A stretch of DNA of 64,000 nt from an uncultured Bacteroides sp. (GTDB taxonomy: Bacteria > Bacteroidota > Bacteroidia > Bacteroidales > UBA11471). Location: NCBI GenBank assembly GCA_963931635.1, contig OZ007034.1, positions 921,285-985,284 on the forward strand. The letters run 5' to 3'. How positions within the stretch are numbered: position 1 is the stretch's first letter; every line of letters starts with the position of its first letter. The notes under the pieces are model-generated. The model did not search any database. It was not told the DNA's origin and saw nothing but the letters and a program-made list of their open reading frames with translations. The translations under genes and the position numbers were made by a program. Below are positions 5,199 through 58,571 of this stretch, piece by piece.

Positions 5199-5272
5199 CT
5201 CTTCAGGTAGGACTTGAACCTACGACCCTCTGATTAACAGTCAGATGCTCTAACCGACTGAGCTACTGAAGA
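5199..5272 (-). tRNA. tRNA-Asn (anticodon GTT)
   Basis: The reverse complement folds as a 74-nt cloverleaf. Acceptor TCTTCAG/CTGAAGA, D-stem GCTC/GAGC, anticodon stem TCTGA/TCAGA with loop CTGTTAA, T-stem GTAGG/CCTAC with loop TTCAAGT. CCA is not encoded. Confidence 0.93.
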
Positions 5273-5316: not shown

Positions 5317-5390
5317 CTCTTCAGGTAGGACTTGAACCTACGACCCTCTGATTAACAGTCAGATGCTCTAACCGACTGAGCTACTGAAGA
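5317..5390 (-). tRNA. tRNA-Asn (anticodon GTT), second identical copy
   Basis: The 74-nt sequence is identical to the copy at 5199-5272 and is separated from it by a 44-nt spacer. Confidence 0.93.
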
Positions 5391-33629: not shown

Positions 33630-33780
33630 GGCAAAAATGGTAAGAATAACGGGCTTTAAAATTACGACGATTTATCGGTTTTACCTCAGCACTCTCTCTA
33701 TTTTTACACTTTTAGAGCCATAAATAGGAATATACGATGATTATTACCATCTTTTAAAAAGATAAATGGCTTACTTTTCC

Positions 33781-33788
33781 TATCTTTG
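33781..33788 (+). promoter_or_regulatory. -7 box TATCTTTG upstream of the DUF2723 gene
   Basis: TAnnTTTG match 122 nt before ATG 33910. Confidence 0.4.
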
Positions 33789-33909
33789 CTCGCGCGATGA
33801 CAGAGAGCAACAGGGCAGGAGGAGTGATATACGCATCTTTCTGTTTCTCCTTCTTGTTTTCTGTAAAAGCCGGTCATAATCGAAATATACGTTATTTCAT
33901 CATATCATC

Positions 33910-39016: not shown

Positions 39017-39454
39017 ATTATTATTTTATTTTTTCTTTAAAGACTTTCTATGCTGATGATATTATCCTGTTGATAATACTCAAAACTTTTTCCTTTTTTA
39101 TTTGCTTTTTCGGTTATGAAAAGAAAATTTCTACTTATGAGTAGATTATTAACCTTTCTTTTTGCTTATAATAAGCAACTTGCAGATGTATTCAACATCT
39201 GTTTACAACGGGCAAAGTTAGAAATTTTCTTTTATAAGAATACTTGATAAACGTTTATTTGTCTTTTGGTATCTCTCCCAAAAAAAGTTGTTTTATTATT
39301 TGGAGTTTCTCTTTGGCTGCCGGTATAAAATAGTTTGGAAAAGTGTGTGTTTTTTTCTATTCTTTTTTTGAAGTTTTTTTTTCACAGCTTTTCAACACTT
39401 ATCGACAACTTATCATCACGGTTTGTATTTGTGATGGCTGGGAGTTTTTATAAG

Positions 39455-39533
39455 AAAGGATGCGGCTCGGCATAGTCAATGGATGAAAACTTCGTTTTCT
39501 CTTTGCCTCTGCTCTCGCCTTTCACTATCTTTG
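39455..39533 (+). repeat. solo (about 0.9 unit) copy of the 85-bp hairpin repeat family
   Basis: ggatgcggctcggcatagtcaatggatgaaaacttcgttttctctttgcctctgctctcgcctttcactatctttg is near-identical to units at 56900-57335 and, inverted, at 48285-48520. Confidence 0.85.
39526..39533 (+). promoter_or_regulatory. -7 box TATCTTTG (inside the repeat) upstream of the SpoU/TrmH gene
   Basis: TTTG-N20-TATCTTTG is formed by the repeat tail and head, 30 nt before ATG 39563. Confidence 0.55.
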
Positions 39534-39562
39534 TAAAGGATTATTGTAAGTGAAGCGTAAAG

Positions 39563-40093
39563 ATGAAGAAGAAAACCGTTCTCGATATGCAACGCATATC
39601 GGTAGATGAGTTTAAGGCAGCCGATAAGATACCTCTTGTCATAGTTCTCGATAACGTGCGCAGTCTCAACAATGTAGGGTCGGTGTTCCGCACGAGCGAT
39701 GCGTTCAGGGCATCGGCCATCTATCTCTGTGGTATCACCTCTACGCCCCCTCACCCCGAGATTCACAAGACGGCTCTGGGGGCCGAAGATAGTGTGGAAT
39801 GGCACTATGCAGCCGATACTGTTGCTCTGATTGATGAACTGCATGTTCGTGGATATTTTGTCTATGCTATCGAGCAGGTAGAGGGGAGTGTGTCGCTGGC
39901 CGATATTGAACTATTTCCCGAAAAAAAATATGCCGTGGTGCTGGGTAATGAAGTGAACGGCGTGCAACAGCAGGTTGTTGATAAGTGCGATGCCTGCCTG
40001 GAAATACCTCAGTATGGAACGAAACATTCACTCAATGTTTCGGTAACGGCCGGGCTGGTGATATGGGATTTTTTCAAACAACTTTTCAGGTAA
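39563..40093 (+). CDS. TrmH/SpoU family RNA 2'-O-methyltransferase
   Basis: PLVIVLDNVRSLNNVGSVFRTSDAF...VLGNEVNGV...IPQYGTKHSLNVSVTAGLVIW SPOUT motifs. Confidence 0.85.
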   Translation: MKKKTVLDMQRISVDEFKAADKIPLVIVLDNVRSLNNVGSVFRTSDAFRASAIYLCGITSTPPHPEIHKTALGAEDSVEWHYAADTVALIDELHVRGYFVYAIEQVEGSVSLADIELFPEKKYAVVLGNEVNGVQQQVVDKCDACLEIPQYGTKHSLNVSVTAGLVIWDFFKQLFR

Positions 40094-40276
40094 TCTGTTT
40101 ACAAATATAGTGCTGATTATCAGTTAAAAAGAATATAAAAATTTTTCGAGACGCAGACACCCTCTTTGAAGAAAGAGAACGTCTGCGTCTGTTTCATAAA
40201 AAGGATTATAAAAAAGAGATGCGGCTGTTGATAACCGTGTAGAGAGAGGGAAAAGCAGGGCGGAGGAGGGGAAGCG

Positions 40277-40873
40277 TCAGAGTTGGCCGTTCTCTACCAA
40301 TACCACAATCTCTTCGAGCATGCGGTCTTTGCCTTCGGGTTCCCACTCCTTGCGGAGGCTCACGCCGAACATGGCACCGAATGTTTGCCAAAAAGAGGCT
40401 CTGAAACCACCCAGGAAGGCTTTTATAAGCTGGTAGGACGACTGATTGCATTCCCGGTCGATGAGACGTATCAGCAGCTTGGCCTGGTTGTAGGTAAAAT
40501 CTTTCAGCACCGGCTTGTATTCCTCGAAGAGTTCCTTCTCCATGCGTTTAAGGTGTTTTTCGCGTTCCTCTTCGGGGAGGGTCTGAATATATTCATAGGT
40601 TTCTATCAGGGCATTGTGTACCAGTTTGGCATAGGGTAACACCTTCTTCACGTCGCGCACATTGCGCCAATAGTACTCTTTCTCCTTCTGGCTTTTGAAG
40701 GTTCTTTTCGGAAAACAATAAATCGGGCGAAGTATGATGAGCGTAGCTGTGTCGCCGGCATCGGTTACGAAGCGGGTAATGCGCTGATAGTATCGTGACT
40801 GTTGGGCTTGGGCACATTCGCAGCCCAGGCCAATCAGCGACAGAAGCATAATGATACAGGCCTTCTTCATCAC
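40277..40873 (-). CDS. DUF4294 domain-containing secreted protein
   Basis: Signal peptide. ...VLPYAKL...LIRLIDRECNQSSYQLIKAFLGGFRASFWQTFGAMFGVSLRKEWEP matches my recollection of DUF4294. Confidence 0.7.
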   Translation of the reverse strand: MMKKACIIMLLSLIGLGCECAQAQQSRYYQRITRFVTDAGDTATLIILRPIYCFPKRTFKSQKEKEYYWRNVRDVKKVLPYAKLVHNALIETYEYIQTLPEEEREKHLKRMEKELFEEYKPVLKDFTYNQAKLLIRLIDRECNQSSYQLIKAFLGGFRASFWQTFGAMFGVSLRKEWEPEGKDRMLEEIVVLVENGQL

Positions 40874-41338
40874 CGCAAAAGTAGTGTATTGCAGCCGAAT
40901 AAGCGCTTAAAAAGTTTTATTTTCTCTCTTCCTTATGTTGATAACTCCTAAATAAAATGTTTATATCTATACAATATATTATTATAAATAATTGTATATC
41001 AATAAAATAATATTAAATATGATATTTATGAACAGCATTTTATAAAATAGACGTCATGCCGGTGGACAGAACAATTCTGCCTGCGGTGCTTTTGCCTGCG
41101 GCCGGTGGGGGACAAAGAATCGTTTATTTTCTCTTTCCTGCGGTTGATAACCTATCAGTAAGATGTTGATATTTATAAAACATGATTTTGTAAATATCTG
41201 TATATCAATATATAAATATTGAATATGGCGATTATCAACAACTTTTGATAAGAAAAACATTCCATTTTTGATTTTCGCTATTTCTTACCGCGGGTCGACA
41301 AATGATAGGCGATGCAACAAAGGTTGCCTTTTTAGTGT

Positions 41339-41346
41339 TACCTTTG
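41339..41346 (+). promoter_or_regulatory. -7 box TACCTTTG upstream of the radical SAM gene
   Basis: TAnnTTTG match 23 nt before ATG 41369. Confidence 0.5.
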
Positions 41347-41368
41347 TAGCGAAAAATATAAAAAAGCA

Positions 41369-42148
41369 ATGTCTACACTTCTGTTTCGCGAAATCGTTTT
41401 CGGACCGGTACACAGCCGGCGGTTGGGAATATCGTTGGGAATGAATCTTCTTCCTGTCGACGGGAAGGTATGTTCTTTCGACTGCATCTATTGCGAGTGC
41501 GGTTACAATGGCGAGCGTCATGCCCACAGCGGATTGCCTTCGCGCGAGGAGGTGAGCGAGTGTCTGAAAAACCGTCTCATTGCCATGCACGGCCGAGGCG
41601 AGAAACTCGATGTTATCACCTTTGCCGGGAACGGCGAGCCGACACTGCACCCCGACTTTGCCGCCATCATCGACGATACGCTGCGCCTGCGCGACACCTA
41701 TTATCCTGAGGCCAAGGTGAGTGTGCTTTCCAATGCCACGCGCATCGACCGTGCCGATGTGTTTGCGGCTCTGAACAGGGTAGACAACAACATCTTGAAA
41801 CTCGATTCGTCGCTCGACAAGACGGTGCGTCTCATCAATTCGCCCGCATCGCCCTCCTTCACGGTCGAGAAACTCATAGATGCTCTCTGTCGTTTCAACG
41901 GTAATCTTATTGTGCAGACTCTCTTCCTCCAAGGCCGCCACAACGGCACGACGGTCGACAACACCACCGAAGAGGAGCTTCGCCCCTGGCTCGATGCCGT
42001 GCGTCGCATAGCTCCCAAGGAGGTGATGATATACACCATCGACCGCGAAACCCCCGAAAAGGAGCTGCGCAAGGCCACGCCCGCCACACTCGACGCCATT
42101 GCCCGCCGTGTCGAAGCCCTGGGCATCAAGGCTCAGGTATCCTATTGA
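41369..42148 (+). CDS. radical SAM protein (small, unknown substrate)
   Basis: GPVHSRRLGISLG... and CSFDCIYC (CxxxCxxC) cluster motif. 259 aa. Confidence 0.8.
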   Translation: MSTLLFREIVFGPVHSRRLGISLGMNLLPVDGKVCSFDCIYCECGYNGERHAHSGLPSREEVSECLKNRLIAMHGRGEKLDVITFAGNGEPTLHPDFAAIIDDTLRLRDTYYPEAKVSVLSNATRIDRADVFAALNRVDNNILKLDSSLDKTVRLINSPASPSFTVEKLIDALCRFNGNLIVQTLFLQGRHNGTTVDNTTEEELRPWLDAVRRIAPKEVMIYTIDRETPEKELRKATPATLDAIARRVEALGIKAQVSY

Positions 42149-42284
42149 AAAGCTGGCACCGAAAAAATTCTCCCTTGACTTTTGGGGCTTGTAGTGAGGT
42201 ATGTAGACATAAATTGTCGATTTTTACCGCTTTATGGCCGATAATGTCGGACAAAGAATTATTTTTACGCCGTGAAATAAAGTT

Positions 42285-43109
42285 ATGGGTAAAACACGGT
42301 TCTCTCTCTTTATCCCTCTTCTTTTGGTGGCCGCATTCATACAGGTGATTTTCGGTAACCCCGACCTCTCTGTCTTTGCTTTTCCGGTAAATGCGGCTAT
42401 TGTTCTGTTGTTGTTTGGCGGGCTCTATGTGTTCAACAGAGAGTACGCTGCGAACCGTTTTTTAGTGGCCCTTGCGTCGGGTCGCACCGCTGTGTCGGCT
42501 ATTGTACTGACCGGTATGGCGGGGCTGGTGATGCTCTTTTTCCCCTCTCTCGCATTTCAGAAGTCCTGGATTTTCGACGCCGTGCTGTTGCTCCTCGTCT
42601 CCAATCTTTTCCTGGCCCTGCTGCGGTACAGGGGACGGCACAGGTGGCGCTTTTACCTCAACCATGCCGGTTTGCTCATACTGGTAGTGGGGCTGGCTTT
42701 CGGGGCGGCCGACATGCGTGTGATGCGGGCATCCGTGAAGGTGGGCGAGAGCATCGACAAGGCCTATACCCGCGAAGGGGTTGCCCGTCCGCTCGGATAT
42801 ACATTGACACTGAAACATTTCGAAATAGAATATTACGATGCCGCCCGGCAGATACCGGCCGATTTCCGGGCCGAGGTTGTTGCCGACGGTGAGAGTCGCA
42901 CCATCAGGGTGAATGCCCCTTGGCATAAATCCTGGAAAGAAGATATTTATCTGGCTGCCTATGACACGGCTGCGGGTGGCGGGAGCGAGTATGGTGTGCT
43001 GGAATTTGTCGTGCAGCCGTGGAAAAACGTCGCCCTTGCCGGTCTGCTGCTGTTTGTGGCAGGTTCGCTGCTGATGGTGTGGGGCGGTAAAAAGAAAAAC
43101 TTGTCATGA
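42285..43109 (+). CDS. short ResB/CcsB-like cytochrome c biogenesis protein (System II)
   Basis: TM helices with YLNHAGLLILVVG (conserved His). C-terminal ...TIRVNAPWHKSWKEDIYLAAY resembles the ResB 'vN.P....g..iYq' block. Only 274 aa, so shorter than typical ResB. Confidence 0.6.
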   Translation: MGKTRFSLFIPLLLVAAFIQVIFGNPDLSVFAFPVNAAIVLLLFGGLYVFNREYAANRFLVALASGRTAVSAIVLTGMAGLVMLFFPSLAFQKSWIFDAVLLLLVSNLFLALLRYRGRHRWRFYLNHAGLLILVVGLAFGAADMRVMRASVKVGESIDKAYTREGVARPLGYTLTLKHFEIEYYDAARQIPADFRAEVVADGESRTIRVNAPWHKSWKEDIYLAAYDTAAGGGSEYGVLEFVVQPWKNVALAGLLLFVAGSLLMVWGGKKKNLS

Positions 43110-43882
43110 ACTGGGAACATTTTCCATACATCGCCGCCCTCTCGGTGCTCTTGTCGCTTGCGGGAGCCGTATGTGCCCTGCGCAACCCCCGGCGGTCGCC
43201 GACGGCCCTGCTCCTGTCGCTGGCCGGTGTGGGAGTGCTGGCCTTTTTCATCGGCGGGTTCTGGCTCTCGCTCGGACGGCCTCCCATGCGCACCATGGGC
43301 GAGACACGCCTCTGGTATTCGCTCTTTGTAATGATGGCGGGGCTCTTCGTCTACCGGCGGTGGAATTACCGGTGGCTGTTGTTGTTCACCACCGTACTGT
43401 CGGGCGTGTTCTGCATCATCAACGTGGTGAAGCCCGAGATACACGATGCCACGCTCGCACCAGCATTGCAGAGTGTCTACTTCATACCGCATGTGGCCGT
43501 CTACATGTTTGCCTACGGTCTGCTGGCCTGTGCCTTTCTGCTGGCTGTGGCCGGTCTTGTGCAGGGCAGGTATGGCTATTTGGAGTCGATAGACAATCTG
43601 GTGTACATTGCCACCGGGCTGCTCTTTCTCGGCATGCTCTCGGGCGCCTTGTGGGCCAAGGAGGCCTGGGGCGATTTCTGGGGCTGGGATCCCAAGGAGA
43701 CGTGGGCTGCCGTTACGGCAGCCGGGTATCTGACCTACATACACCTGCGCCTCACCCGGGTATCGGAGAGCCGCTGGCTCTATGTCGTGGTGGTGGTGAG
43801 CTTTCTCCTGCTGCAAATGTGCTGGTATGGGTATAAATACTTACCTTCGTCGGGCGAAAGCCTGCATCTCTATAATATGTAA
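43106..43882 (+). CDS. ccsA: cytochrome c biogenesis protein CcsA (haem handling, WWD motif)
   Basis: WAKEAWGDFWGWDPKETWA (Trp-rich WWD motif) and flanking His residues. ATGA overlap with the ResB-like gene. Confidence 0.8.
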   Translation: MNWEHFPYIAALSVLLSLAGAVCALRNPRRSPTALLLSLAGVGVLAFFIGGFWLSLGRPPMRTMGETRLWYSLFVMMAGLFVYRRWNYRWLLLFTTVLSGVFCIINVVKPEIHDATLAPALQSVYFIPHVAVYMFAYGLLACAFLLAVAGLVQGRYGYLESIDNLVYIATGLLFLGMLSGALWAKEAWGDFWGWDPKETWAAVTAAGYLTYIHLRLTRVSESRWLYVVVVVSFLLLQMCWYGYKYLPSSGESLHLYNM

Positions 43883-43927
43883 GAGACTAAATTTCAGTAT
43901 AAACCAAAAACCTAAACGTACAGAAAA

Positions 43928-45322
43928 ATGAAAACAAGTTCGAAAACCATTCTTGTTGCGATAGGAATCGTCGCAATAGGAGCGATTGTTTACCGGGCTG
44001 TCAACACGGCACCTCCCGAGTCGATGCCGGCCGATGAACGAATCGTGAAAATCTTTGAAGATGGCGGTTGTGCCGAGTGCCACACGGCCGACCCCGCGCT
44101 TCCCTTCTTCTCCAACTGGCCCATTGCCCGGAAGGTTATCACCGAGGATATCGTCAACGGATACAAGTCATTTGATATTGTTCCTATGATGACGGCCATC
44201 GAAAACGGTGAGGCTGTGAACGAAGTAGACCTGGCCAAAGTAGAAAAATCGGTCATGGACGGTACGATGCCGTTGGCCAAATATTATTTGGTGCACTGGG
44301 GTTCGTCGCTCACCCGCAAGAAATCGGACATGGTGTTGGCTTGGGTACGTAACCATCGTGCTCAGTTCTATCCCAACACGCTGGCCGCTGCCGAGTTTGC
44401 CAACGAGACCATCAGACCGATACCCGACTCAGTAGAGTACGACCCCGCCAAGGCTGCTCTCGGTGAGCTTCTCTACCACGACACCCGTCTATCGGCCGAC
44501 GGTACCGTTTCCTGTGCCACCTGCCACGGTATCAATACCGGCGGTGTCGACAACCTGAAATATTCCGAAGGCATCGGCGGACAACTGGGTGGTGTGAATG
44601 CTCCCACAGTGTTCAATGCCGTGTTCAACTTCGTACAGTTCTGGGACGGACGGGCCGCCACGCTGGCCGACCAGGCTGCCGGACCTCCCTTGAATCCCGT
44701 AGAGATGGGTTGCACCTCGTTCGACGAAATCGTAGCCCGTCTAGCCGAAGACAAGGCTTTCGTAAAGGCCTTCAATGCCGTCTATCCCGAAGGGTTGAGC
44801 CAGGCCACCATTACCGATGCCATTGCCCAATATGAGCATACCCTCATTACTCCCAACTCGCCTTTCGACCGTTACCTCAAAGGCGACAAGGAGGCTCTCA
44901 CCGCCGAGCAAGTCAAGGGCTTTGAACTCTTCAAGGAGTACAACTGCGCCACCTGCCACGCCGGTGTGAACATGGGCGGATTGAGCTATGAACTGATGGG
45001 TCAGCGGGCCGACTACTTCAAAGACCGCGAGCTTCAAGAGCGCTCGGGCCTGACCGATGGCGACAACGGTCGTTGGGCTCAGACCGGTATCGAACGCGAC
45101 CGTTTCCGCTTCCGCACCCCCGGCTTGCGCAACGTGGCTCTCACCTATCCCTATTACCACGACGGTAGTGTGAAATCCCTCGAAGAGGCTGTGGGCATGA
45201 TGGCCAAATATCAGGTAGGTAAGGAATTGTCGGCCGAAAACATTGCCACAATTACCGCTTTCCTGCACACCCTTACAGGTGAGTACAAGGGACAAACCCT
45301 CGTTAATGACAACATGAAATAA
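43928..45322 (+). CDS. membrane-anchored tri-haem cytochrome c peroxidase (YhjA-like quinol peroxidase)
   Basis: N-terminal TM anchor (ILVAIGIVAIGAIVY). Three CxxCH motifs: CAECH, CATCH, CATCH. Di-haem CCP/MauG core (...FWDGRA...PMG-like and ...FRTPGLRNV...PYYHDGS). Confidence 0.8.
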   Translation: MKTSSKTILVAIGIVAIGAIVYRAVNTAPPESMPADERIVKIFEDGGCAECHTADPALPFFSNWPIARKVITEDIVNGYKSFDIVPMMTAIENGEAVNEVDLAKVEKSVMDGTMPLAKYYLVHWGSSLTRKKSDMVLAWVRNHRAQFYPNTLAAAEFANETIRPIPDSVEYDPAKAALGELLYHDTRLSADGTVSCATCHGINTGGVDNLKYSEGIGGQLGGVNAPTVFNAVFNFVQFWDGRAATLADQAAGPPLNPVEMGCTSFDEIVARLAEDKAFVKAFNAVYPEGLSQATITDAIAQYEHTLITPNSPFDRYLKGDKEALTAEQVKGFELFKEYNCATCHAGVNMGGLSYELMGQRADYFKDRELQERSGLTDGDNGRWAQTGIERDRFRFRTPGLRNVALTYPYYHDGSVKSLEEAVGMMAKYQVGKELSAENIATITAFLHTLTGEYKGQTLVNDNMK

Positions 45323-45363
45323 GACTTTCTTCGCCACGTTCTTTGTTGAGCGGCGAGCCATAC

Positions 45364-45404
45364 AGACATTTCGAGACGTGTGCGTCTCGAAATGTCTTTT
45401 TTTT
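45364..45404 (+). terminator. strong rho-independent terminator after the peroxidase gene
   Basis: agacatttcgagacg (45364-78) pairs with cgtctcgaaatgtct (45383-97), followed by ttttttt. Confidence 0.9.
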
Positions 45405-45764
45405 ACCCCTTTTTTGCGGAGTATTTTTTGGCAAAATCAAATTGCAGGAGATAATGTAGTGATTATCTACACCTATAAATGATTTCTTAAAAATTTGTTG
45501 CAAAAAAATCATTATTATAAAATAATCCCGTATATTTGTTGCGTAATCCAAAACAAAATACCGCTTTCGAGCCTTATCACACACATATTATCCTTACTCA
45601 ATCGTTGACATCTCCGGGTGTTGCCAATGCCTGCACGACTGCTTTCAGCCGCGCGGTTTTCTTTTTTATGCGCATTTAGTCGCTCTGTTTTTTCATACAG
45701 TGTAGGGTGAGACAAGAAAATAACGTATTCAAAAAATCAAATCAGTTTTTCGTAAAAAAATATT

Positions 45765-46808
45765 ATGGGATTAATGCTCTTATACCTATTCGTGGCATTA
45801 GGTGTATCATTTACTTGTTCGGTACTCGAAGCCGTGCTGCTCTCGACGCCGATGTCGTTTATCACGATGAAGGAGCAGGAGGGAGGCGGAGCGTCGGCCC
45901 GACTGCTGAAAAAATACAAACAGAACATCGACAAGCCCATCTCGGCCATACTTTCGCTCAACACCATCGCCCATACCATTGGTGCGGCCGGTGTGGGAGC
46001 CGAGGCGGTGAAGATTTTCGGTGAGGCCTATTTCGGTATCATCTCGGCCATACTCACCATACTCATTCTCGTGCTTTCCGAGATTATACCCAAGACCATT
46101 GGCGCCTCGTACTGGCGCAGGCTGGCCCTCTTCTCGGCACAGGTGATACGGGTGTTTGTCTACATCTGCTATCCGCTCGTGCTGCTTTCGGAGTTGATAA
46201 CCCGCGTATTCTCTCCCAAGGAGAAAGAGGTGTCGGTAAGCCGTGAAGAGGTATCGGCCATGCTCACGGTGGGCGAAGAAGAGGGAGTCTTCGAGTCGAA
46301 AGAAAACAAGGTGATACAGAACCTTATCCGACTCAACAACGTAAAGGTAAAAGAGGTGATGACCCCTCGCGTGGTGACGGCCGTGGCCTCGGAAGAGATG
46401 ACCCTGCGCGACTTCTACAACGAGAAGTCCTACCGTTTCTATTCGCGCATACCCGTCTATGGCGACAGCAAAGACTACATCACCGGCTATGTGCTGCGGC
46501 GCACGGTGCTCGAAAACCTCACCGAAGACAAGTTCGACATGAAGCTCAAAGACATACGCCGGCCCATACCCTATTTCTCCGAAAACAAGTCGGTATCGAC
46601 CGTGTGGGAAAAACTTCTCGAACACAAGGAGCAGATAGCCCTCATCGTCGACGAGTACGGCTGCTTCCGCGGCATCATCACCATGGAAGATGTGGTAGAG
46701 ACCATCTTCGGCCTCGAAATCATCGACGAGACCGATACCGTCGTCGATATGCAGCAGCTGGCCCGCGATCGCTGGAACGCCCGCCTGCAACGCTACAAGG
46801 AGATGTAG
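45765..46808 (+). CDS. CNNM/CorC-type transporter-associated protein (DUF21 membrane domain plus CBS pair)
   Basis: The N-terminal DUF21 helices contain ...LSLNTIAHTIGAAGVG.... Then a CBS pair (VKEVMTPRV...; ...IALIVDEYGCFRGIITMEDVVETIFG). Confidence 0.8.
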   Translation: MGLMLLYLFVALGVSFTCSVLEAVLLSTPMSFITMKEQEGGGASARLLKKYKQNIDKPISAILSLNTIAHTIGAAGVGAEAVKIFGEAYFGIISAILTILILVLSEIIPKTIGASYWRRLALFSAQVIRVFVYICYPLVLLSELITRVFSPKEKEVSVSREEVSAMLTVGEEEGVFESKENKVIQNLIRLNNVKVKEVMTPRVVTAVASEEMTLRDFYNEKSYRFYSRIPVYGDSKDYITGYVLRRTVLENLTEDKFDMKLKDIRRPIPYFSENKSVSTVWEKLLEHKEQIALIVDEYGCFRGIITMEDVVETIFGLEIIDETDTVVDMQQLARDRWNARLQRYKEM

Positions 46809-46833
46809 TGTCGTCGTCGGTGTGACAAACAGG

Positions 46834-46875
46834 AGAGAGGCTCTGCCACGGCGGCAGAGCCTCTCTTTCATTTTA
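46834..46875. terminator. hairpin terminator between convergent genes
   Basis: agagaggctctgcc (46834-47) pairs with ggcagagcctctct (46853-66), followed by ttcatttt. Confidence 0.75.
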
Positions 46876-46880
46876 TTTTA

Positions 46881-47300
46881 TTAGTCGGAAATCTCGATAG
46901 CGGGATTGCGGCGCGATAGTTCCCTTACGAAAGCGTCGAGCTCTTTGGGCGAGACGAAGAGCGGCCGTTTCGCCCCTCTCAGCCTCAGCACGACACCGCG
47001 GCGGGAGAGGGCATAGGCCGCCGCAAACGGGCAGCGCCGCACGGTGACGGACACGCCGGTGATAGCCGTTACCGGCACACGGCAGGTGGCCAGATAGCCC
47101 GAGCGCACGACAAGCGTGCCGTCGTCGAGAAAACGGTATTCGGTGCCGGTGATGCGGGCAATGAGAAATACCGCCCCCAGCATGCACACCACCCATGCCA
47201 CCACATACCCCACCCACAGGCAGTAGAGCATGGCAGCCGTCGCCACCGCCAGCAGCGAATAAAATGCCGTACCGTCGATTCCCGATTTAAATGTGCGCAT
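46881..47300 (-). CDS. bacterial PH-domain (bPH) membrane protein
   Basis: Two N-terminal TM helices are followed by ...TEYRFLDDGTLVVRSGYL...PVTAITGVSV...VVLRL..., as in YdbS/YdbT-type PH domains. High-GC codon usage like the host. Confidence 0.6.
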   Translation of the reverse strand: MRTFKSGIDGTAFYSLLAVATAAMLYCLWVGYVVAWVVCMLGAVFLIARITGTEYRFLDDGTLVVRSGYLATCRVPVTAITGVSVTVRRCPFAAAYALSRRGVVLRLRGAKRPLFVSPKELDAFVRELSRRNPAIEISD

Positions 47301-47366
47301 GGGCAGAATACTTTTGTTAAACTAATTCAATTTCTCAGATAACGCGGTTTCCTTGAAAATGTTGTT

Positions 47367-48278
47367 TTACTCCCGATATAACATACCGGCATTGCGGGTT
47401 ATGTTGGCTACCACGTCGCGCAGCCACGAAGGTGACTCCACCTCTATCTCATCGCCGTAGGAGAGTATTTCCTTGACAAAGTCGAAAGAGGGTCGCAGTT
47501 GGTATTCAAAAATCTTGAAATCCATCTCTTTGTCGGTCTCTATCTCTTTCTGGCTGTGATGCAGGGGCAACGAACGTATATATTTGTATTGGTTGCCATA
47601 AACGATGAGGCGTACCGTCTCTATCTTTTTGTCCGTATCCACGATGATGCCGAAACAGGAAGAGAAAAATTCCTGGGCATCGAAGTCGTCCGGCAAAGAA
47701 AAAGTCTGTTCGGTTATATGGATAGAAGAAATGCGATCCAGCGAAAAAACCAATAAATCGTTTTGCCGGCAGCTGCGTGCCAATACATACCAGCGTTGAC
47801 GGAATATTTTTAGGCAGTATGGTTCTATGTCGAACGTTTTGGTCGATTTTTTCCAGAAACTTTGATACGAAATGGTTACCACTCTATTGCAGCGCATGGC
47901 TTCGATCATGGGAATAAGGTATTTTTCGCCCGAAGGTATGTTCTCCAATAGAATTCTTTTTTTGAGGAGATGATTTTCATTAATGATATTATTTACGGCG
48001 AAAGTATTCAGTAACCATTTTTTTATATCATTTTTTTCGATGTCTTCAACATTTTCGATGTAATAACAGTATCCGTTGCGTCTCTCACATTCGATGTTGA
48101 TATCGAAAATATCTTCGATGGCTTTTCTGTGATTATGGAATGTGCGTATGGGTATGGTCTCTCCCTCGCTCATGCCGGAGAGTAACCATTTTTCATTGAT
48201 TTCTTCGAGCGAAATTTTGCCTGCCCGATAAATGGTATTGATGAGCCAGATGTATCTGGTAAATAGATTTTTTGCCAT
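47367..48278 (-). CDS. WYL domain-containing transcriptional regulator (HTH-WYL-WCX architecture)
   Basis: MAKNLFTRYIWLINTIYRAGKISLEEINEKW (wHTH-like). Central ...IEPYCLKIFRQRWYVLARS...LLVFSLDRI (WYL beta-barrel signature). AT-rich codons. The longer 48485 start reads through repeat DNA and is rejected. Confidence 0.75.
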   Translation of the reverse strand: MAKNLFTRYIWLINTIYRAGKISLEEINEKWLLSGMSEGETIPIRTFHNHRKAIEDIFDINIECERRNGYCYYIENVEDIEKNDIKKWLLNTFAVNNIINENHLLKKRILLENIPSGEKYLIPMIEAMRCNRVVTISYQSFWKKSTKTFDIEPYCLKIFRQRWYVLARSCRQNDLLVFSLDRISSIHITEQTFSLPDDFDAQEFFSSCFGIIVDTDKKIETVRLIVYGNQYKYIRSLPLHHSQKEIETDKEMDFKIFEYQLRPSFDFVKEILSYGDEIEVESPSWLRDVVANITRNAGMLYRE

Positions 48279-48284
48279 AATGTA

Positions 48285-48520
48285 CAAATATAGTGAAAGG
48301 CGAGAGCAGAGGCAAGGGAGAAAACGGAGTTTTCGTCGATGACTATGCCGAGCCGCCTCCTGTATTCTGAAAATATAGCGAAAGGCGAGAGCAGAGACAA
48401 GGGAGAAAACAAAGTTTTCGCCAAAGACTATGCCGAGCCGCCTCCTGTATTCTGAAAATATAGTGAAAGGCGAGAGCAGAGACAAAGAGGAAAAGATAAT
48501 TTTATATCGAGCCGCTTAGG
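48285..48520 (-). repeat. tandem array (about 2.8 units) of the 85-bp hairpin repeat family, inverted orientation
   Basis: Unit heads (tctcgcctttcac on the minus strand) fall at 48305, 48390 and 48475, an exact 85-bp period. A degenerate partial unit extends to ~48520. Confidence 0.85.
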
Positions 48521-48528
48521 TTCTGTAA

Positions 48529-48564
48529 TGAAAAAATAAAACAGGCAAGCGCAAGCTTGCCTGT
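48529..48564 (-). terminator. rho-independent terminator ending the 5-gene island operon
   Basis: acaggcaagc (48541-50) pairs with gcttgcctgt (48555-64). On the minus strand it is followed by tttatttttt. It lies 7 nt after the stop of the 77-aa ORF. Confidence 0.8.
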
Positions 48565-48570
48565 TTTATT

Positions 48571-48804
48571 TTAGCTGCGCTTGGTCCATGACCTACCTTC
48601 GGTTGTCGAATAAAACAGTCCTTTGGTCGTTTGGGCTAAAATTTCTTTTCCATTATCGATCAAATCCAGAAAATCTCCGATATTGGAGTTTGGTTGGAAC
48701 CGAACGGTCCATGATCTTCCGTCCGTGAAAGAATATTCGAGTTTCCCTGCTGAAACCGGGGAGATGCGGATAAGTTCTTTTCCGCGTTTAATCATTTTGG
48801 GCAT
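48571..48804 (-). CDS. 77-aa protein with two Asp-box/BNR-like hairpin motifs
   Basis: Internal duplication KLEYSFTDGRSWTVR / GLFYSTTEGRSWTKR (S-x-T-[DE]-G-R-S-W). AT-rich codons. Last gene of the operon. Confidence 0.5.
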   Translation of the reverse strand: MPKMIKRGKELIRISPVSAGKLEYSFTDGRSWTVRFQPNSNIGDFLDLIDNGKEILAQTTKGLFYSTTEGRSWTKRS

Positions 48805-54368: not shown

Positions 54369-54468
54369 AGCAGTTTGTTTTTAAAAAGAAAATTTCGTGC
54401 AAATTTAAAAATTCCCCGTGAATAAACAGAGAGAAGAGTGGGGAAGAAAAATATGAAAAATTTTGTAT

Positions 54469-54476
54469 TATCTTTG
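54469..54476 (+). promoter_or_regulatory. -7 box TATCTTTG upstream of the GH43 gene
   Basis: TAnnTTTG match 114 nt before ATG 54590. Confidence 0.4.
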
Positions 54477-54589
54477 TCGTAGACCGGTAGTGCCGTGGCA
54501 GGGTCTGCAATCGAAAACCGTGTTTTGTAGCACCCGTCCTGCCCGGTATCTGTTGCCGGTGATTGAAAATAGAAAAAGAGAAAGATTCC

Positions 54590-56152
54590 ATGAAAAAACA
54601 GATTCTTGCCGCCTGGCTTTTGGCTGTCGCCGTTGTGGGGGCACCGGCCCAGTCGACCACCGCTTGGGGCGACCAGGGTAACGGCACCTATGTGAACCCG
54701 ATACTCAATGCCGACTATTCCGACCCCGATGTGATACGCGTGGGGGAGAAATACTATATGGTATGTTCCGACTTCCACTACATCGGTATGCCCGTTTTGG
54801 AATCGGACGACATGGTCAACTGGACCATCATCTCCCAGGTCTACGACCGGTTTGACTATCCCAAGTGGGACGACAACCGCCGCTTTGCCGGCGGTTCCTG
54901 GGCCCCCACCATACGTTACCACGATGGTAAGTTCTGGGTCTTCTTCTGCACCCCGCACGAGGGGCTCTTCATGACAACCGCCACCGACCCCCGCGGGCCG
55001 TGGGCGCCGCTGCACCGTGTCGTGGCCGTCGAGAAGTGGGAAGACCCGTGCCCCTTCTGGGACGAAGACGGACAGGCCTACCTCGGCCGCAGCCGCCACG
55101 GGGCAGGCCCCATCATCATACACAAGATGAGCCCCGACGGGCGTGAGCTGCTCGACGACGGCTTTACCGTCTATACCGGTCCCGTGGCCGAGGGTACGAA
55201 GATATACAAGCGCGACGGCTATTACTACATCAGCATACCCGAGGGTGGGGTAGAGGTAGGCTGGCAGACGGTGCTTCGCTCGCGCAACATCTATGGCCCT
55301 TATGAGAAAAAAGTGGTGATGGAGCAGGGAAGCACCCCCATCAACGGTCCGCACCAGGGGGCGTTGGTCGACACGCCCGACGGGGAGTGGTGGTTCTACC
55401 ATTTCCAGTTTGTGCAGCCCATCGGCCGTGTGGTACATTTGCAGCCGACGCACTGGAAAGACGGTTGGCCCGTTATCGGGGTCGACATCGACATGAACGG
55501 CATCGGCGAGCCGGTGCGGGTGTGGACCAAGCCGCGCGTTGCCACGGCCGGCGGCGACATTGCGTTGCCCCAGTCGAGCGACGATTTCGCCGCACCCCGT
55601 CTCGGCGTGCAGTGGCAATACAACCACAACCCGCACCCCGAGTGTGTGTCGCTTACCGCCCGCAAGGGGTGGCTGCGCCTCACCGCTTTGCAGGGCGACA
55701 GCCTGAAAGCCTCGCACAATATGCTCTCGCAGAAGACCATGGGCTACCACTCCGAGGCGACAACCCGCCTCGACTTTTCGCGTATGGTCGATGGGCAGCG
55801 GGCCGGACTGCTCTGTGCCGGCAACTTTTTCAACGGTATCGGCGTGATGTGTAAACAGGGCAAGAAAATTCTCTACCTGGAAAAAGACGGACGTGTAGAG
55901 GAGATTACCGCCGTAGGCGGAAAAACAGTCTACCTGCGTGCCGTTGTCGACTATCCGGCCAACAGCCACCGGCTCTATTACAGCACCGACGGCAAACGCT
56001 ATGTTGAGGCCGGAGAACCTTACGCCCTTAAATTCGGCAGCTGGAAAGGAACCCGTGTGGGGCTCTATACCTACAATGTAGGGGGCGACGGCGGCGTGGC
56101 CGACTTCGACTTCTTTACCTACACCACCGATGGTCCCGGACTGGCCCGTTAA
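54590..56152 (+). CDS. glycoside hydrolase family 43 protein (beta-xylosidase/alpha-L-arabinofuranosidase type) with C-terminal beta-sandwich
   Basis: Signal peptide MKKQILAAWLLAVAVVGAPAQS. NPILNADYSDPDVIRVGEKYYMV (catalytic Asp block). ...WAPTIRYHDGKFWV.... ...EGTKIYKRDGYYYI... (Glu block). Confidence 0.88.
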   Translation: MKKQILAAWLLAVAVVGAPAQSTTAWGDQGNGTYVNPILNADYSDPDVIRVGEKYYMVCSDFHYIGMPVLESDDMVNWTIISQVYDRFDYPKWDDNRRFAGGSWAPTIRYHDGKFWVFFCTPHEGLFMTTATDPRGPWAPLHRVVAVEKWEDPCPFWDEDGQAYLGRSRHGAGPIIIHKMSPDGRELLDDGFTVYTGPVAEGTKIYKRDGYYYISIPEGGVEVGWQTVLRSRNIYGPYEKKVVMEQGSTPINGPHQGALVDTPDGEWWFYHFQFVQPIGRVVHLQPTHWKDGWPVIGVDIDMNGIGEPVRVWTKPRVATAGGDIALPQSSDDFAAPRLGVQWQYNHNPHPECVSLTARKGWLRLTALQGDSLKASHNMLSQKTMGYHSEATTRLDFSRMVDGQRAGLLCAGNFFNGIGVMCKQGKKILYLEKDGRVEEITAVGGKTVYLRAVVDYPANSHRLYYSTDGKRYVEAGEPYALKFGSWKGTRVGLYTYNVGGDGGVADFDFFTYTTDGPGLAR

Positions 56153-56231: not shown

Positions 56232-56807
56232 TTAATAGTTCAACCGTTTGGGTTCGAAATAGGCCTTCGGGTGGAGGCAGGCGGGGCATTTCTCGGGAGG
56301 ATTGAGCCCTTCATGCACATAGCCGCAGTGGCGGCATTGCCATTTGATGGGCTCTTCGCGGCGGAATACCTCGTGCTCTTCCATGCGGGCCAGCAGCTGG
56401 CGGTAGCGCCACTCGTGAAACTCCTCGACCCGGGCTATGGCACGGAATGCGGCGGCTACATCTTTGAACCCTTCGTCGACGGCGATGGTAGAGAAGTTGC
56501 TGTACAGGTCCGACCATTCGAGCAGTTCTCCTTCGGCGGCTTCGTAGAGGTTCTCCTTGGTTTTCCCGATGCGGCCGGCCGGATATTCGGCTTCGATGGT
56601 TACCATGCCTCCCTCGTCGAGAAAGTCGAAAAAGCGGCGGGCGTGTGCCAGCTCCTGGTCGGCGGTTTCGGCAAACACGCCGGCAATCTGTTCGTAGCCT
56701 TCTTCGCGGGCCGTCTGGGCGAAAAACGTGTAGCGGTTGCGGGCTTGCGATTCACCGGCGAAGGCTTTCAGCAGGTTTTGTTCGGTGAGACTTCCTTTCA
56801 GTTTCAT
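56232..56807 (-). CDS. rbr: rubrerythrin
   Basis: MKLKGSLTEQNLLKAFAGESQARNRY... (di-iron four-helix E..H motifs). C-terminal rubredoxin CRHCG...CPAC. The ORF-caller's 56951 start reads into repeat DNA. Confidence 0.9.
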   Translation of the reverse strand: MKLKGSLTEQNLLKAFAGESQARNRYTFFAQTAREEGYEQIAGVFAETADQELAHARRFFDFLDEGGMVTIEAEYPAGRIGKTKENLYEAAEGELLEWSDLYSNFSTIAVDEGFKDVAAAFRAIARVEEFHEWRYRQLLARMEEHEVFRREEPIKWQCRHCGYVHEGLNPPEKCPACLHPKAYFEPKRLNY

Positions 56808-56899
56808 GTTGCGTTGGATTTTTAGTGAGACAAAAAAGTGTATGGTAGGAACGCCGCAGGAGGGGAGAAGGTTCAATGTCGCTGTGTCGGCCTTTTCAT

Positions 56900-57335
56900 T
56901 CTCGCCTTTCACTGTTTTCATAGAAGACAGGAGTCGGCTCGGCATAGCCAATGGATGAAAACTTCGTTTTCTCTTTGCCTTTGCTCTCGCCTTTCACTGT
57001 CTTTTCAGAAGACAGGAGTCGGCTCGGCATAGTCAATGAACGAAAACTTCGTTTTCTCTTTGCCTCTGCTCTCACCTTTCGCTATCTTTTCAGAAGATAG
57101 GTTGCGGCTCGGCACAGTCAACGATGAAAACTTCGTTTTCTCACCCGCCTCTGCTCTCGCTTTTCACTGTCTTTTCAGAAGATAGGAGTCGGCTCGGCAC
57201 AGTCAACGAGTGAAAACTTCGTTTTCTCACCCGCCTCTGCTCTCGCTTTTCACTGTCTTTTCAGAAGACAGGATGCGGCTCGGTAAAAATCTCAAACGAG
57301 TTTGGTCTTTTTACTCTCGCCTTTCACTATCTTTG
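56900..57335 (+). repeat. tandem array (about 5.2 units) of the 85-bp hairpin repeat family
   Basis: Unit heads tctcgcctttcac fall at 56900, 56985, 57070, 57155, 57241 and 57315. Each unit carries ctgtctt-ttcag-aagacag and gaaaac-ttc-gttttc hairpins and the core cggctcggcatagtc. Confidence 0.9.
57328..57335 (+). promoter_or_regulatory. -7 box TATCTTTG in the last repeat unit, upstream of the MFS gene
   Basis: Only the gene-proximal unit has TATCTTTG. Internal units read TGTCTTTT or TATCTTTT. It lies 52 nt before ATG 57387. Confidence 0.55.
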
Positions 57336-57386
57336 CCGCCCGAAACTTTGTATCGCTGCCGGCGCGGAGACCGGTTACCCGAAGAT

Positions 57387-58571
57387 ATGAAAAAAGACAA
57401 GCTGTGGACCTCCTCGTTTCTGGCCATCTCAGGGGGCAGTTTTCTTCTCTTCTTTGCCTTTTACCTGCTCTTGCCCGTGCTGCCCCTCTATCTGATGGAG
57501 CGCTTCGAAGCCAATGAGTCGACCGTGGGCATGGTCTTGTCGCTCTACACCATAACGGCGCTTTTCATGCGTCCCTTTGCCGGTTTCATGGTCGATACTT
57601 TCCCCCGCAAACGGCTGATGCTCATCTGTTATGCCGTGTTTACCTGCATCTTCGGCGGCTATCTGTTGGCGGCATCGGTGCTGTTTTTTGCCGTGATAAG
57701 GGCGCTGCACGGCTTTTCCTACGGCATAGTGAGTGTGGCCAACAGCACGGTGGCCATCGACGTGATGCCCTCGTCGCGACGGGGCGAAGGCATCGGCTAT
57801 TTCGGCGTGAGCAGCAACCTGGCCATGGCCGTGGGGCCCACCGTCTCGCTCTATCTGCTCGAAGCCTCGCACAATTACGATACGATATTCTGGGTGTCGC
57901 TGCTCTCGTGCTGCGTGGGTTTCGTGCTGGTTACGACGGTGCGGGTGCCGGCCAAGGAGCGGTTGCCGCGACCGGCTACCGAACACATATCGTTCGACCG
58001 CTTCTTCCTTGTAAAGGGCACCTCGGGAGCCATTGCGGTGAGTATGCTGTCGTTTGGCTACGGCATGCTGTCGACCTACCTGGCTGTTTACGGCCGGGCC
58101 GAGGTGGGTATGGAGTCGGGCACGGGAGTCTTTTTCATGCTCATGGCCTTCGGTCTCATCTTCTCGCGTCTGATGTCGGGACGGCTGCTCAACAAGGGCT
58201 ATATCGTGCGCCTCATACAGGTGGGTATCATCATACTCTTTGTCGGATATTCGCTTTTCATCTTTCTGAAAGTGCCGGCGGCCTATTTTGCCTCGGCCGC
58301 TGTTCTGGGCATGGGATACGGTTTTGTGTGCCCGTCGTTCCAGACCTACTTCATCAACCTGGCCGAGCATAACCAGCGGGGTACGGCCAACTCTACCTAC
58401 CTCACCTCCTGGGATTTGGGTGTGGGTCTGGGTGTGCTGGTGGGGGGCGGTATTGCCGACATGTCCGACTATACCACGGCCTACATCTGTGCCCTGGTAA
58501 CGCTTGTCGTGGGCTATTTCTTTTTCCGACACATCTCGGCCCCCTATTTCGAACGGCACAAATTGCGTTGA
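57387..58571 (+). CDS. MFS transporter
   Basis: MKKDKLWTSSFLAISGGSFLLFF.... Twelve hydrophobic helices. The MFS loop motif ...FMRPFAGFMVDTFPRKRL... is present. The 57210 start lies in repeat DNA. Confidence 0.85.
   Translation: MKKDKLWTSSFLAISGGSFLLFFAFYLLLPVLPLYLMERFEANESTVGMVLSLYTITALFMRPFAGFMVDTFPRKRLMLICYAVFTCIFGGYLLAASVLFFAVIRALHGFSYGIVSVANSTVAIDVMPSSRRGEGIGYFGVSSNLAMAVGPTVSLYLLEASHNYDTIFWVSLLSCCVGFVLVTTVRVPAKERLPRPATEHISFDRFFLVKGTSGAIAVSMLSFGYGMLSTYLAVYGRAEVGMESGTGVFFMLMAFGLIFSRLMSGRLLNKGYIVRLIQVGIIILFVGYSLFIFLKVPAAYFASAAVLGMGYGFVCPSFQTYFINLAEHNQRGTANSTYLTSWDLGVGLGVLVGGGIADMSDYTTAYICALVTLVVGYFFFRHISAPYFERHKLR

Follow-up and report, generated by a model that had tools for sequence, protein, structure and literature searches.

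An 85-bp repeat at Bacteroidales gene starts, apparently from a widespread and so far undescribed hairpin-forming family

Introduction

What is the tandem repeat that fills the region between a rubrerythrin gene and a divergent MFS transporter gene in an uncultured Bacteroides sp., and what is its role at the start of a gene? The region lies in a stretch of 64,000 nucleotides from contig OZ007034.1 (assembly GCA_963931635.1, positions 921,285 to 985,284 of the forward strand), here called the window, and it holds head-to-tail copies of an 85-bp hairpin unit, here called array A. An earlier note, made from the letters of the window, had taken this unit for a dispersed, amplifiable element bearing a promoter or a leader, and not for simple satellite DNA. 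Comparison with other genomes and metagenomes supports that interpretation, with the exception of the leader option. The 85-bp repeat is apparently a member of a widespread hairpin-forming repeat family of Bacteroidales, so far undescribed, and probably acts as a portable promoter.

Results

Anatomy of the arrays in the window

Array A is composed of four full units of 85 or 86 bp, a fifth unit whose centre is different and, at the end, a 21-bp head that closes with TATCTTTG (Table 1). Tandem Repeats Finder detected it at 56900-57283 (period 85, 4.5 copies, 88% matches, score 530) and reported another 85-bp repeat at 48286-48485, array B, whose consensus is the reverse complement of that of array A. 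The 5' half of unit 5 is that of the other units and its centre differs, the nhmmer match being limited to model positions 1-47. A window-wide nhmmer search together with an exhaustive covariance-model scan placed the family at three sites only, the two arrays and a single unit, site C, which on direct reading differs from the junction of units 1 and 2 of array A at 6 of 77 positions (~92% identity). Each of the three is oriented toward the start of the adjacent gene. The core cggctcggcaYag has 7 matches in the window against 0.34 expected, and the head has 9 against 0.00, always accompanied by the body. These results agree closely with the earlier note: the heads that it had placed at 56900, 56985, 57070, 57155, 57241 and 57315 were confirmed exactly by reading the sequence, the two inverted repeats (ctgtctt-ttcag-aagacag and gaaaac-ttc-gttttc) and the core that it had described were found in the units, and the relatives that it had seen near 39.5 kb and, inverted, near 48.3 kb, aimed at downstream genes, are sites C and B.

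The consensus recognized by sigma-ABfr is -33 TTTG / -7 TAnnTTTG (PMC7366714), and the -7 motif is present at all three sites of the window. Family conservation in array A stops at 57335, the last base of the terminal box, and the ATG of the MFS gene lies 51 nt past this box. Because the centre of unit 5 differs, the spacer between TTTG and box in the proximal promoter of array A is 23 nt. The tails of units 3 and 4 read ACCCGCC, without TTTG, and site B has CTTG instead of TTTG at the -33 position. The arrangement TTTG-N20-box proposed for the unit junctions was found after type-1 units with a TTTG tail (units 1 and 2 and site C), but not for units 3 and 4. Likewise, the full promoter proposed for the gene-proximal unit has the expected perfect box, but not the 20-nt spacer in array A.

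Two other readings of the array were discarded. A period of 85 bp cannot be divided by three and thus keeps no constant reading frame through the array, across which only short frame-shifting open reading frames (ORFs) run. A CRISPR was ruled out, as the array has no spacers. On the reverse strand of units 3 and 4 (57094-57121 and 57179-57206) a generic sigma-70 scan flags TTGACT-16-TATCTT, which is a by-product of the palindromic symmetry of the unit; the Bacteroidota-type reading of this strand is TTTG-N19-TATCTTnn, without the TG of the -7 box. Directly distal to array B, at ~48527-48575, there is a strong hairpin made of an A-tract, a GC stem and a T-tract (aaaataaaacaggcaagcgcaagcttgcctgttttatttt), by its sequence a likely bidirectional terminator, which stands between the array and upstream co-oriented genes. 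Finally, positions 54456-54555 of the plus strand, before a GH43 gene (ATG near 54590), give a weak covariance-model match (18.9 bits, E ~0.013). In this stretch the upstream box TATCTTTG (54469-54476) is perfect, the hairpin reads GAAAAC-CGT-GTTTT and the terminal box TATCTGTT is spoiled, which gives it the look of a decayed copy.

Table 1. Positions of the repeat units in the window and of the genes next to them.
Feature	Coordinates	Strand	Description	Basis
Array A, unit 1	56900-56984	+	85 bp; type-1 centre GAAAAC-TTC-GTTTTC	Tandem Repeats Finder; nhmmer, 81 bits; sequence
Array A, unit 2	56985-57069	+	Spoiled internal box TGTCTTTT; hairpin H1, 56997-57003 pairing with 57009-57015	Sequence; nhmmer
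Array A, unit 3	57070-57154	+	Internal box TATCTTTT; tail without TTTG	Sequence; nhmmer
Array A, unit 4	57155-57240	+	86 bp	Sequence; nhmmer
Array A, unit 5	57241-57314	+	74 bp; "variant-2" central hairpin GTAAAAATCTCAAACGAGTTTGGTCTTTTTAC; -33 TTTG at 57301-57304	nhmmer; fold; alleles
Array A, terminal head TCTCGCCTTTCACTATCTTTG	57315-57335	+	21 nt; perfect -7 box TATCTTTG at 57328-57335	
MFS transporter gene, downstream of array A	57387-58571	+	Pfam MFS_1	ORF
Rubrerythrin gene, divergent upstream neighbour of array A	56232-56807	-	Outside the element	ORF
Array B, full extent	48281-48520	-		Tandem Repeats Finder; nhmmer; covariance model
Array B, terminal head	48285-48292 (box)	-	Box TATATTTG	
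Array B, two full units	48306-48390 and 48391-48475	-		
Array B, distal partial unit	48476-48515	-	Variant centre	
WYL-domain gene, served by array B	47367-48278	-		
Site C, single unit and terminal head	39445-39533	+	No upstream box; box TATCTTTG at 39526-39533	
SpoU/TrmH methyltransferase gene, served by site C	39563-40093	+		

Distribution of the family

The family was sought in one genome per GTDB species with a pattern made of the core and the GAAAAC hairpin. This first scan gave at least 115 stretches, with about two chance matches expected, from ~35 genomes, almost all of Bacteroidales; the counts of arrays, units, boxes and downstream genes given below were made among the matches listed from it. 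A second scan, of metagenomes, with the centre left free and a different anchor, gave at least 120 further stretches. Since CGGCTCGGCA was forced in the first scan and GCGGCTCGG in the second, the conservation of the core is partly an ascertainment effect. Carriers are found in Barnesiella, Rikenellaceae/Alistipes/Tidjanibacter, Muribaculaceae, Phocaeicola, Paraprevotella clara, Mediterranea, Leyella and Prevotella, with 4-9 exact-pattern loci per scanned genome among the matches listed. Cultured organisms with copies include Paraprevotella clara YIT 11840, Phocaeicola acetigenes KGMB11183, Mediterranea massiliensis and Leyella lascolaii. Some matches of the first scan come from metagenome-assembled genomes (MAGs) labelled Flavobacteriales; those in Scalindua, Acidobacteriota and Silanimonas had no nhmmer match and were taken as chance.

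The window is 96.5% identical over 6 kb to the MAG BRZ_AF__bin46 and is therefore of the same species, and its SpoU protein is closest to those of Candidatus Caccoplasma (81%), Coprobacter (75%) and Barnesiella (73%). The metagenome contig OAUV01000499.1 (L192) has five pattern matches at three places in 14 kb (786/946, 5774/5933 and, on the opposite strand, 9911); its paired matches, 160 bp apart, suggest a repeated larger block that carries the element.

Orientation, position and conservation of the boxes

Orientation was called with a rough gene caller on 123 arrays, 113 of which could be scored. The downstream gene is co-oriented with the array in 96 and opposed in 17, many of the latter having large gaps that probably hide short genes. 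Terminal boxes are a perfect TAnnTTTG in 111 of 116 cases, as opposed to 23 of the 62 internal boxes (Fisher p = 8e-18), and nearly all of this difference is accounted for by the final G (113/116 against 24/62). This G is outside the repeated part, and thus it appears to be kept by selection at the gene-proximal copy only. Replication in the metagenomes gave a terminal box completed by G in 95 of 99 cases and an ORF start within 300 nt in 93 of 99.

The distance from the box to the first ATG of a long ORF has a median of 27 nt (interquartile range 19-57 nt) and, in the metagenome replicate, of 32 nt. For calibration, the nearest TAnnTTTG of 306 ordinary genes from the same loci lies at a median of 35 nt from the ATG with a mode of 20-30, and the mode for the boxes of the element is also 20-30. 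In B. thetaiotaomicron, 5' untranslated regions are most often 23 nt long, the median being 32 nt (PMC7366714). The -33 TTTG is exactly 20 nt from the box in 75 of the 116 terminal promoters. When the family copies are aligned, the information content is near-maximal and falls to zero right after the final G of the box, with no conservation between the element and the ATG. The proximal junction is near-invariant across genera and reads GAAAAC-N3-GTTTTC-n-TTTG(Y)CTCTGC-(N)CTCGCCTTTC(R)CTAT(M)TTTG.

The downstream genes are diverse: 111 proteins fall into 100 clusters, and 103 downstream proteins match 170 Pfam families with at most 5 members each, among them ribosome-biogenesis GTPases, ABC-F proteins, helicases, pseudouridine synthases, transporters and WYL regulators. 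A regulon was rejected because of this diversity. The upstream gene is co-oriented in 50 arrays, with the element often less than 100 nt from its stop codon, and in 32 arrays, site A included, the element lies in a divergent intergenic region. The head cannot be taken as a generic extended -7 consensus, since native promoters are A/T-rich upstream of the box, and a hairpin of box plus complement is not a general promoter feature, being as frequent in native promoters as in shuffled controls.

Taken together, these counts bear out several claims of the earlier note. Its view of a promoter-bearing dispersed element is in line with the orientation found in the ~35 other genomes, and its statement that the perfect box is restricted to the gene-proximal unit, made from array A, extends to the family. 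The exclusion of a simple satellite holds as well, given the dispersal over loci and genera, the oriented placement, the fixed distance to the ATG and the retention of the terminal G. Its leader option finds no support in the proximal unit: the expected transcription start lies downstream of the last base of the -7 box, which is where conservation stops.

Structure of the unit and covariation

The minimal element, seen at single-unit sites, is ~80 bp long. It begins with the 5' arm AAGATAGG, which is followed by a linker with the conserved core (ATGCGGCTCGG; core GCGGCTCGG) and by a long central hairpin closed by GCA...TGC, whose 3' arm carries the -33 TTTG in the common type. Next comes a conserved GC-rich stretch, CTCGCCTTTCAC (nCTCGCCTTTCA), and last the -7 box CTATCTTTG. 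The GC-rich spacer is conserved in the element and not found in native promoters. A second box often precedes the 5' arm, separated from it by a 4-nt loop (10-12 nt in one subfamily); many single-unit sites, including site C, have no such upstream box. As a whole the unit is a long imperfect palindrome, in which both boxes are complementary to the 5' arm, the upstream one giving a local hairpin and the terminal one a long-range closing stem.

Covariation was measured on 104 distinct units, with slid partners and 500 shuffles as controls. Pairing was found in 85-88% of cells against 41-53% with slid partners, and double-sided changes in 90-97 cells against ~30 in the shuffles, none of the 500 reaching the observed value. 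The strongest signal is that of the second variable base of TAnnTTTG with its partner (CG 50, AU 26, UG 9, UA 6). Pair 46-125 of the outer stem is GC in 61 units, UA in 28 and AU in 6, and two mismatches are conserved in the extended stem. A three-way co-variation joins the upstream box, the 5' arm and the terminal box, and where the two boxes differ the arm pairs with the terminal box only in 53 cases and with the upstream box only in 9. Such co-variation of a promoter -7 box with an adjacent arm is unusual. The inverted termini AAGATAG...CTATCTT co-vary; they are short (7 bp) and go with a ragged 5' boundary.

The central hairpins are hypervariable, GAAAAC...GTTTTC being found in only 27 of the 119 distinct centres of the metagenome scan, in which the centre was free. 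On folding, these 119 centres have a mean z of -3.25, with z < -2 in 92 and 71% of bases paired. The hairpin is polar, with an A-rich 5' half in 116 of 119 and a T-rich 3' half in 119 of 119, and is flanked by GGCTCG and GCTCGCC. Assignment of the strand by G.U against A.C pairs was tried with an ambiguous outcome: the centres gave no G.U strand signal, the sense strand being more stable in 63 and the antisense strand in 53, and a sense-strand C.A mismatch is present in 34 of 104 outer stems. The structural evidence is comparative and compatible with folded DNA or folded RNA.

Copy number, inversion and turnover of sites

Among contigs encoding an identical rubrerythrin or MFS protein, the spacer between the two genes measures 237, 322, 339, 406/407, 481, 492, 579, 605 or 664 nt, and the alleles of array A have 0, 1, 2, 3, 4 or 5 full type-1 units. 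The shortest allele (L120) has the variant-centre unit 5 alone, between two heads. Two alleles have other rearrangements: a duplicated block of a type-1 and a variant unit with a period of ~159 bp (L125), and a 17-bp duplication within the first hairpin (L121). Upstream of SpoU there are 1-2 units in assemblies of an inverted type, described below, and one in the window-type site C, and the WYL side of site B has 2-3 units in different assemblies. The variation of the array in 85-bp steps between strains is what the word amplifiable in the earlier note had anticipated. The identity of units drops from 0.895 inside an array to 0.842 for different arrays of one genome and to 0.783 across genomes (Mann-Whitney p 7e-6), and the nearest neighbour of a unit is in the same genome for 38 of 94, against 2.9 expected. 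It is likely, therefore, that arrays grow by local duplication on the background of an old, constrained family.

Assemblies of the same species differ in the orientation of the 8.7-kb segment between the inverted copies C and B (39544-48280; L132-L141). Where it is inverted, NadA faces the WYL gene and the genes for proteins of 254 and 209 amino acids face SpoU, and in either orientation each gene retains a promoter-bearing unit. The switch between the sequences of the two copies occurs inside the element at points that differ from assembly to assembly, which argues for homologous recombination.

No element was found upstream of the SpoU orthologues (87, 84, 81, 75 and 73% identity) or the MFS orthologues (89, 77 and 71% identity) of sister species. 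One element-free MFS contig keeps the divergent rubrerythrin-MFS layout, and in the element-free orthologues a box of their own lies about as far from the ATG. As the family is present in several Bacteroidales families and absent from these orthologous sites, its sites appear to turn over, and hence the element would be mobile. The "empty" SpoU promoter of the sister species (L262-L264) has a box followed by its own complement (TATCTTTGGAAAAGATAG), with no element body; in the homologous left flank at SpoU of the window species 12 nt of that box are lost, an observation that bears on the point of insertion.

Search for a named family or a parent element

A search of Rfam with E <= 10 over 56800-57400 gave only two chance-level matches (12-13 bits). 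BLAST of phage and plasmid collections returned one plasmid and six phage records, all weak and unannotated, and a viral pattern scan one match; neither search gave a sign of phage origin. No paper printing the unit sequence was found in a literature search with its variants on both strands, and the literature on Bacteroides mobile promoters, MITEs (miniature inverted-repeat transposable elements) and REP/RAYT gave no named family that matches the element; nor does the 2024 MITE catalogue in NAR name such an element. The "repetitive elements" of a P. vulgatus paper are unrelated, and the "near-palindromic PM2" motif of B. thetaiotaomicron (PMC7366714), compared by its description only, is described as -10/-30 boxes, unlike the element. 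No known insertion sequence (IS), MITE or Rfam family matched, with the reservation that the unit does have the short inverted termini mentioned above.

Discussion

It is probable, judging from the comparative sequence data, that the element is a mobile promoter cassette, MITE- or REP-like in shape, whose 3' end is a complete sigma-ABfr promoter and which is amplified by local duplication. It would supply a promoter and no RNA, with the transcription start a few bases past its end. The element sits at the position of a native -7 box, which would make insertions into promoter regions tolerable. Because each unit begins and ends with the same ~20-bp head, arrays could arise through unequal recombination or replication slippage, which would add or remove 85-bp units. 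Internal boxes would subsequently degenerate, in most cases through loss of their final G, with the gene-proximal box kept perfect by selection. Dispersed copies also serve as substrates for homologous recombination.

Several points weigh against this interpretation. Clustering of the 695 ORFs that flank 115 loci gave 593 clusters and no transposase or other enzyme that recurs, and no parent IS was found in the phage and plasmid collections. The absence of a clear target-site duplication and the ragged 5' boundary fit a classical transposon poorly; one could take the upstream TAnnTTT for a 7-bp duplicate of the terminal box, but many single-unit sites lack it, and co-variation links it to the 5' arm as well. 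Vertical inheritance of an old regulatory module, under strong functional constraint and often lost, could also account for the ~81% identity seen across genomes of different families. Promoter activity is argued from consensus, position and selective pattern, and 28 of the 116 terminal promoters have no -33 TTTG, array A itself having the longer proximal spacer. The units of the window fold unremarkably (z -0.6 to -2.8). Moreover, short-read metagenome assemblies, in which repeats can collapse, are the source of many of the copy-number alleles; this is offset by the fact that some alleles are larger than that of the window and that alleles differ in unit sequence and architecture.

Four other explanations were considered, each with a small share of the probability, the portable promoter cassette being the best-supported one. 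It is unlikely, though worth weighing, that the unit is a structured RNA leader or a small RNA. The upstream box would then fire and the ~85-nt unit be transcribed as a 5' leader. The 5' end of the leader, AAGAUAG, would close a long terminal hairpin with CUAUCUU further downstream, by which the mRNA is stabilised or regulated, and internal promoters of the arrays would make such RNAs. The co-varying long-range outer stem (pair 46-125), the preference of the 5' arm for the downstream box (53 against 9), the 23 internal boxes that are perfect promoters and the possible decayed copy at 54456-54555, with its good upstream box and spoiled terminal one, all go in this direction. However, where there is no upstream box, as at many single-unit sites including site C, there is nothing to transcribe the unit, and conservation ends at the -7 box without continuing to the ATG. 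The even split of strand stability, the C.A mismatches in the outer stems, the lack of an Rfam match at E <= 10 and the unrelated downstream genes also speak against an RNA. An array of operators, in which the palindromes and the core bind a global transcription factor, for instance an oxidative-stress regulator given the rubrerythrin gene, and which is not mobile, seems quite improbable. The unpaired blocks GCGGCTCGG and CTCGCCTTTCAC are indeed the most conserved, beyond the promoter consensus and where native promoters are A/T-rich, and the central palindrome occupies ~-40 to -75, where activators typically bind. Nevertheless, the palindromes co-vary or give way to unrelated pairing sequences, which favours nucleic-acid pairing over a fixed protein-recognition sequence; the downstream genes have no common function, orthologous promoters of sister species have no element, and part of the core conservation was imposed by the forced CGGCTCGGCA and GCGGCTCGG.

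We find it hardly probable that the element is an insulator made of a terminator and a promoter, whose central hairpin stops read-through from the upstream gene or units and whose head restarts transcription. The 50 arrays that follow a co-oriented gene, often closely, and the polarity of the hairpin would fit such a role, but a generic terminator scan of array A found no site, the stem is followed by GCTCGCC and not by a T-run, and the element is equally at home in the 32 divergent intergenic regions, that of array A among them, where no terminator is needed. A neutral minisatellite, that is, a local functionless expansion with a coincidental promoter-like box, would account for array A being a variable-number tandem repeat (VNTR) and for units being most similar within an array. 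This last explanation is very improbable, and the comparative data already contradict it: copies of the same 85-bp family are scattered among many loci in many genomes and genera, they are placed with an orientation and at a fixed distance from the start codon, and selection has retained their terminal G.

Within the mobile promoter cassette interpretation, a speculative extension, to which we give a low probability, is that the element homes to promoters. The guide would be its 5' arm (AAnnTAGG), which would pair with the TAnnTT in a host -7 box, probably while the DNA is single-stranded, in a way comparable to the guide-target pairing of IS200/IS605-type elements or to the action of hairpin-recognising HUH enzymes. 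Insertion would occur just downstream of the native box, and a perfect box would be regenerated at the 3' end of the element. The element could in this way spread into promoters without silencing genes, and re-targeting of its own end could seed the first head-to-tail duplicate. The central hairpin, variable in sequence and maintained in folding, might be the recognition structure for a host-encoded enzyme.

Small palindromic repeats that carry promoters are known from other bacteria. Correia elements of Neisseria are non-autonomous palindromic intergenic repeats of ~100-150 bp with outward promoters that alter the expression of neighbouring genes; known from Neisseria only, they are marked by terminal inverted repeats of 26 bp, by duplication of a TA target and by an IHF site. 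The element shares with them the palindromic intergenic form and a promoter, but the inverted repeats, duplication and IHF site are not visible in the alignment of 104 units, and Correia elements are not known to occur in head-to-tail 85-bp arrays. Correia, ERIC and REPIN are listed among promoter-bearing small repeats in PMC3575422, and Correia also in PMC11602168. BrickBuilt of P. gingivalis is a MITE/minisatellite with a 23-nt repeat unit, leader and tail subunits and bidirectional promoters (PMC4596501). It resembles the present element as an intergenic tandem repeat of Bacteroidales with small inverted-repeat ends and, in its own case, promoter activity; however, it is found in P. gingivalis only, whereas the element has an 85-bp period, a single outward promoter and carriers in several Bacteroidales families.

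REP, BIME and REPIN sequences, associated with RAYT, are 20-40 bp long, have GTAG or CGTC tags, form inverted pairs and are typically transcribed at the 3' ends of genes (PMC3116915, PMC3733652, PMC2817692). Like them, the element is an abundant, short, palindromic extragenic repeat that is long-persisting and clustered, with conserved structure and conserved stem mismatches, but it is ~80 bp long, arranged head to tail at the 5' ends of genes, ends in a promoter and has a centre that opens with GCA and not GTAG. The ORFs flanking the 115 loci include no recurrent neighbour of the Y1-transposase or RAYT type. The known VNTRs in promoter regions, as at contingency loci, have units of 1-10 bp that change the promoter spacing. 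Repeat number varies between strains here too, but whole 85-bp promoter modules are added upstream and the proximal promoter is unchanged.

Close in concept are also the putative mobile promoters of Matus-Garcia, Nijveen and van Passel (2012), as far as they are summarised in PMC3575422. The likeness lies in highly similar upstream sequences before unrelated genes, across genera and families, with no Rfam match and with a mobilisation route that is not known. Going by that summary, a putative mobile promoter is recognised operationally by an upstream stretch of 50 nt or more that non-paralogous genes share with at least 80% identity, and the three sites of the window have this degree of identity. 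As summarised there, that class is operational and consists mostly of pairs, whereas the present family has many copies per genome, is palindromic, ends exactly at the -7 box and forms arrays. The element thus lacks defining features of Correia, BrickBuilt and REP/REPIN alike, and it is distinguished by its end at a host -7 box, its 85-bp VNTR arrays, the co-variation of box and arm and its presence in several families.

If the cassette interpretation is correct, a noticeable fraction of the promoters of abundant gut Bacteroidales would derive from one portable sequence; there are three sites in this 64-kb window and 4-9 exact-pattern loci per scanned genome. Its duplication, loss or recombination would rewire or tune the expression of housekeeping and accessory genes between strains in a natural way. 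The structural variation it is associated with, such as the 8.7-kb inversion and the VNTRs in 85-bp steps, would confound short-read assembly and strain typing. The cassette might also offer a compact, evolution-tested promoter module for synthetic biology in Bacteroidales, and a tractable case of small promoter-bearing repeats that move without a nearby transposase.

Other features of the window

A short look-alike, ATCTTTTAAAAAGATAAATGGCTTACTTTTCCTATCTTTG, lies at 33735-33791 of the plus strand (20.6 bits, E ~0.004), without the central hairpin and with an ATG 8 nt further on; this may be either a relative that has no hairpin or a match by chance. At the gathering threshold, Rfam 15 gave only two tRNAs in the whole window. 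Their genes, at 5199-5272 and 5317-5390 on the minus strand, have identical Rfam scores (74.8 bits), stand 118 bp apart and are a probable tandem duplicate.

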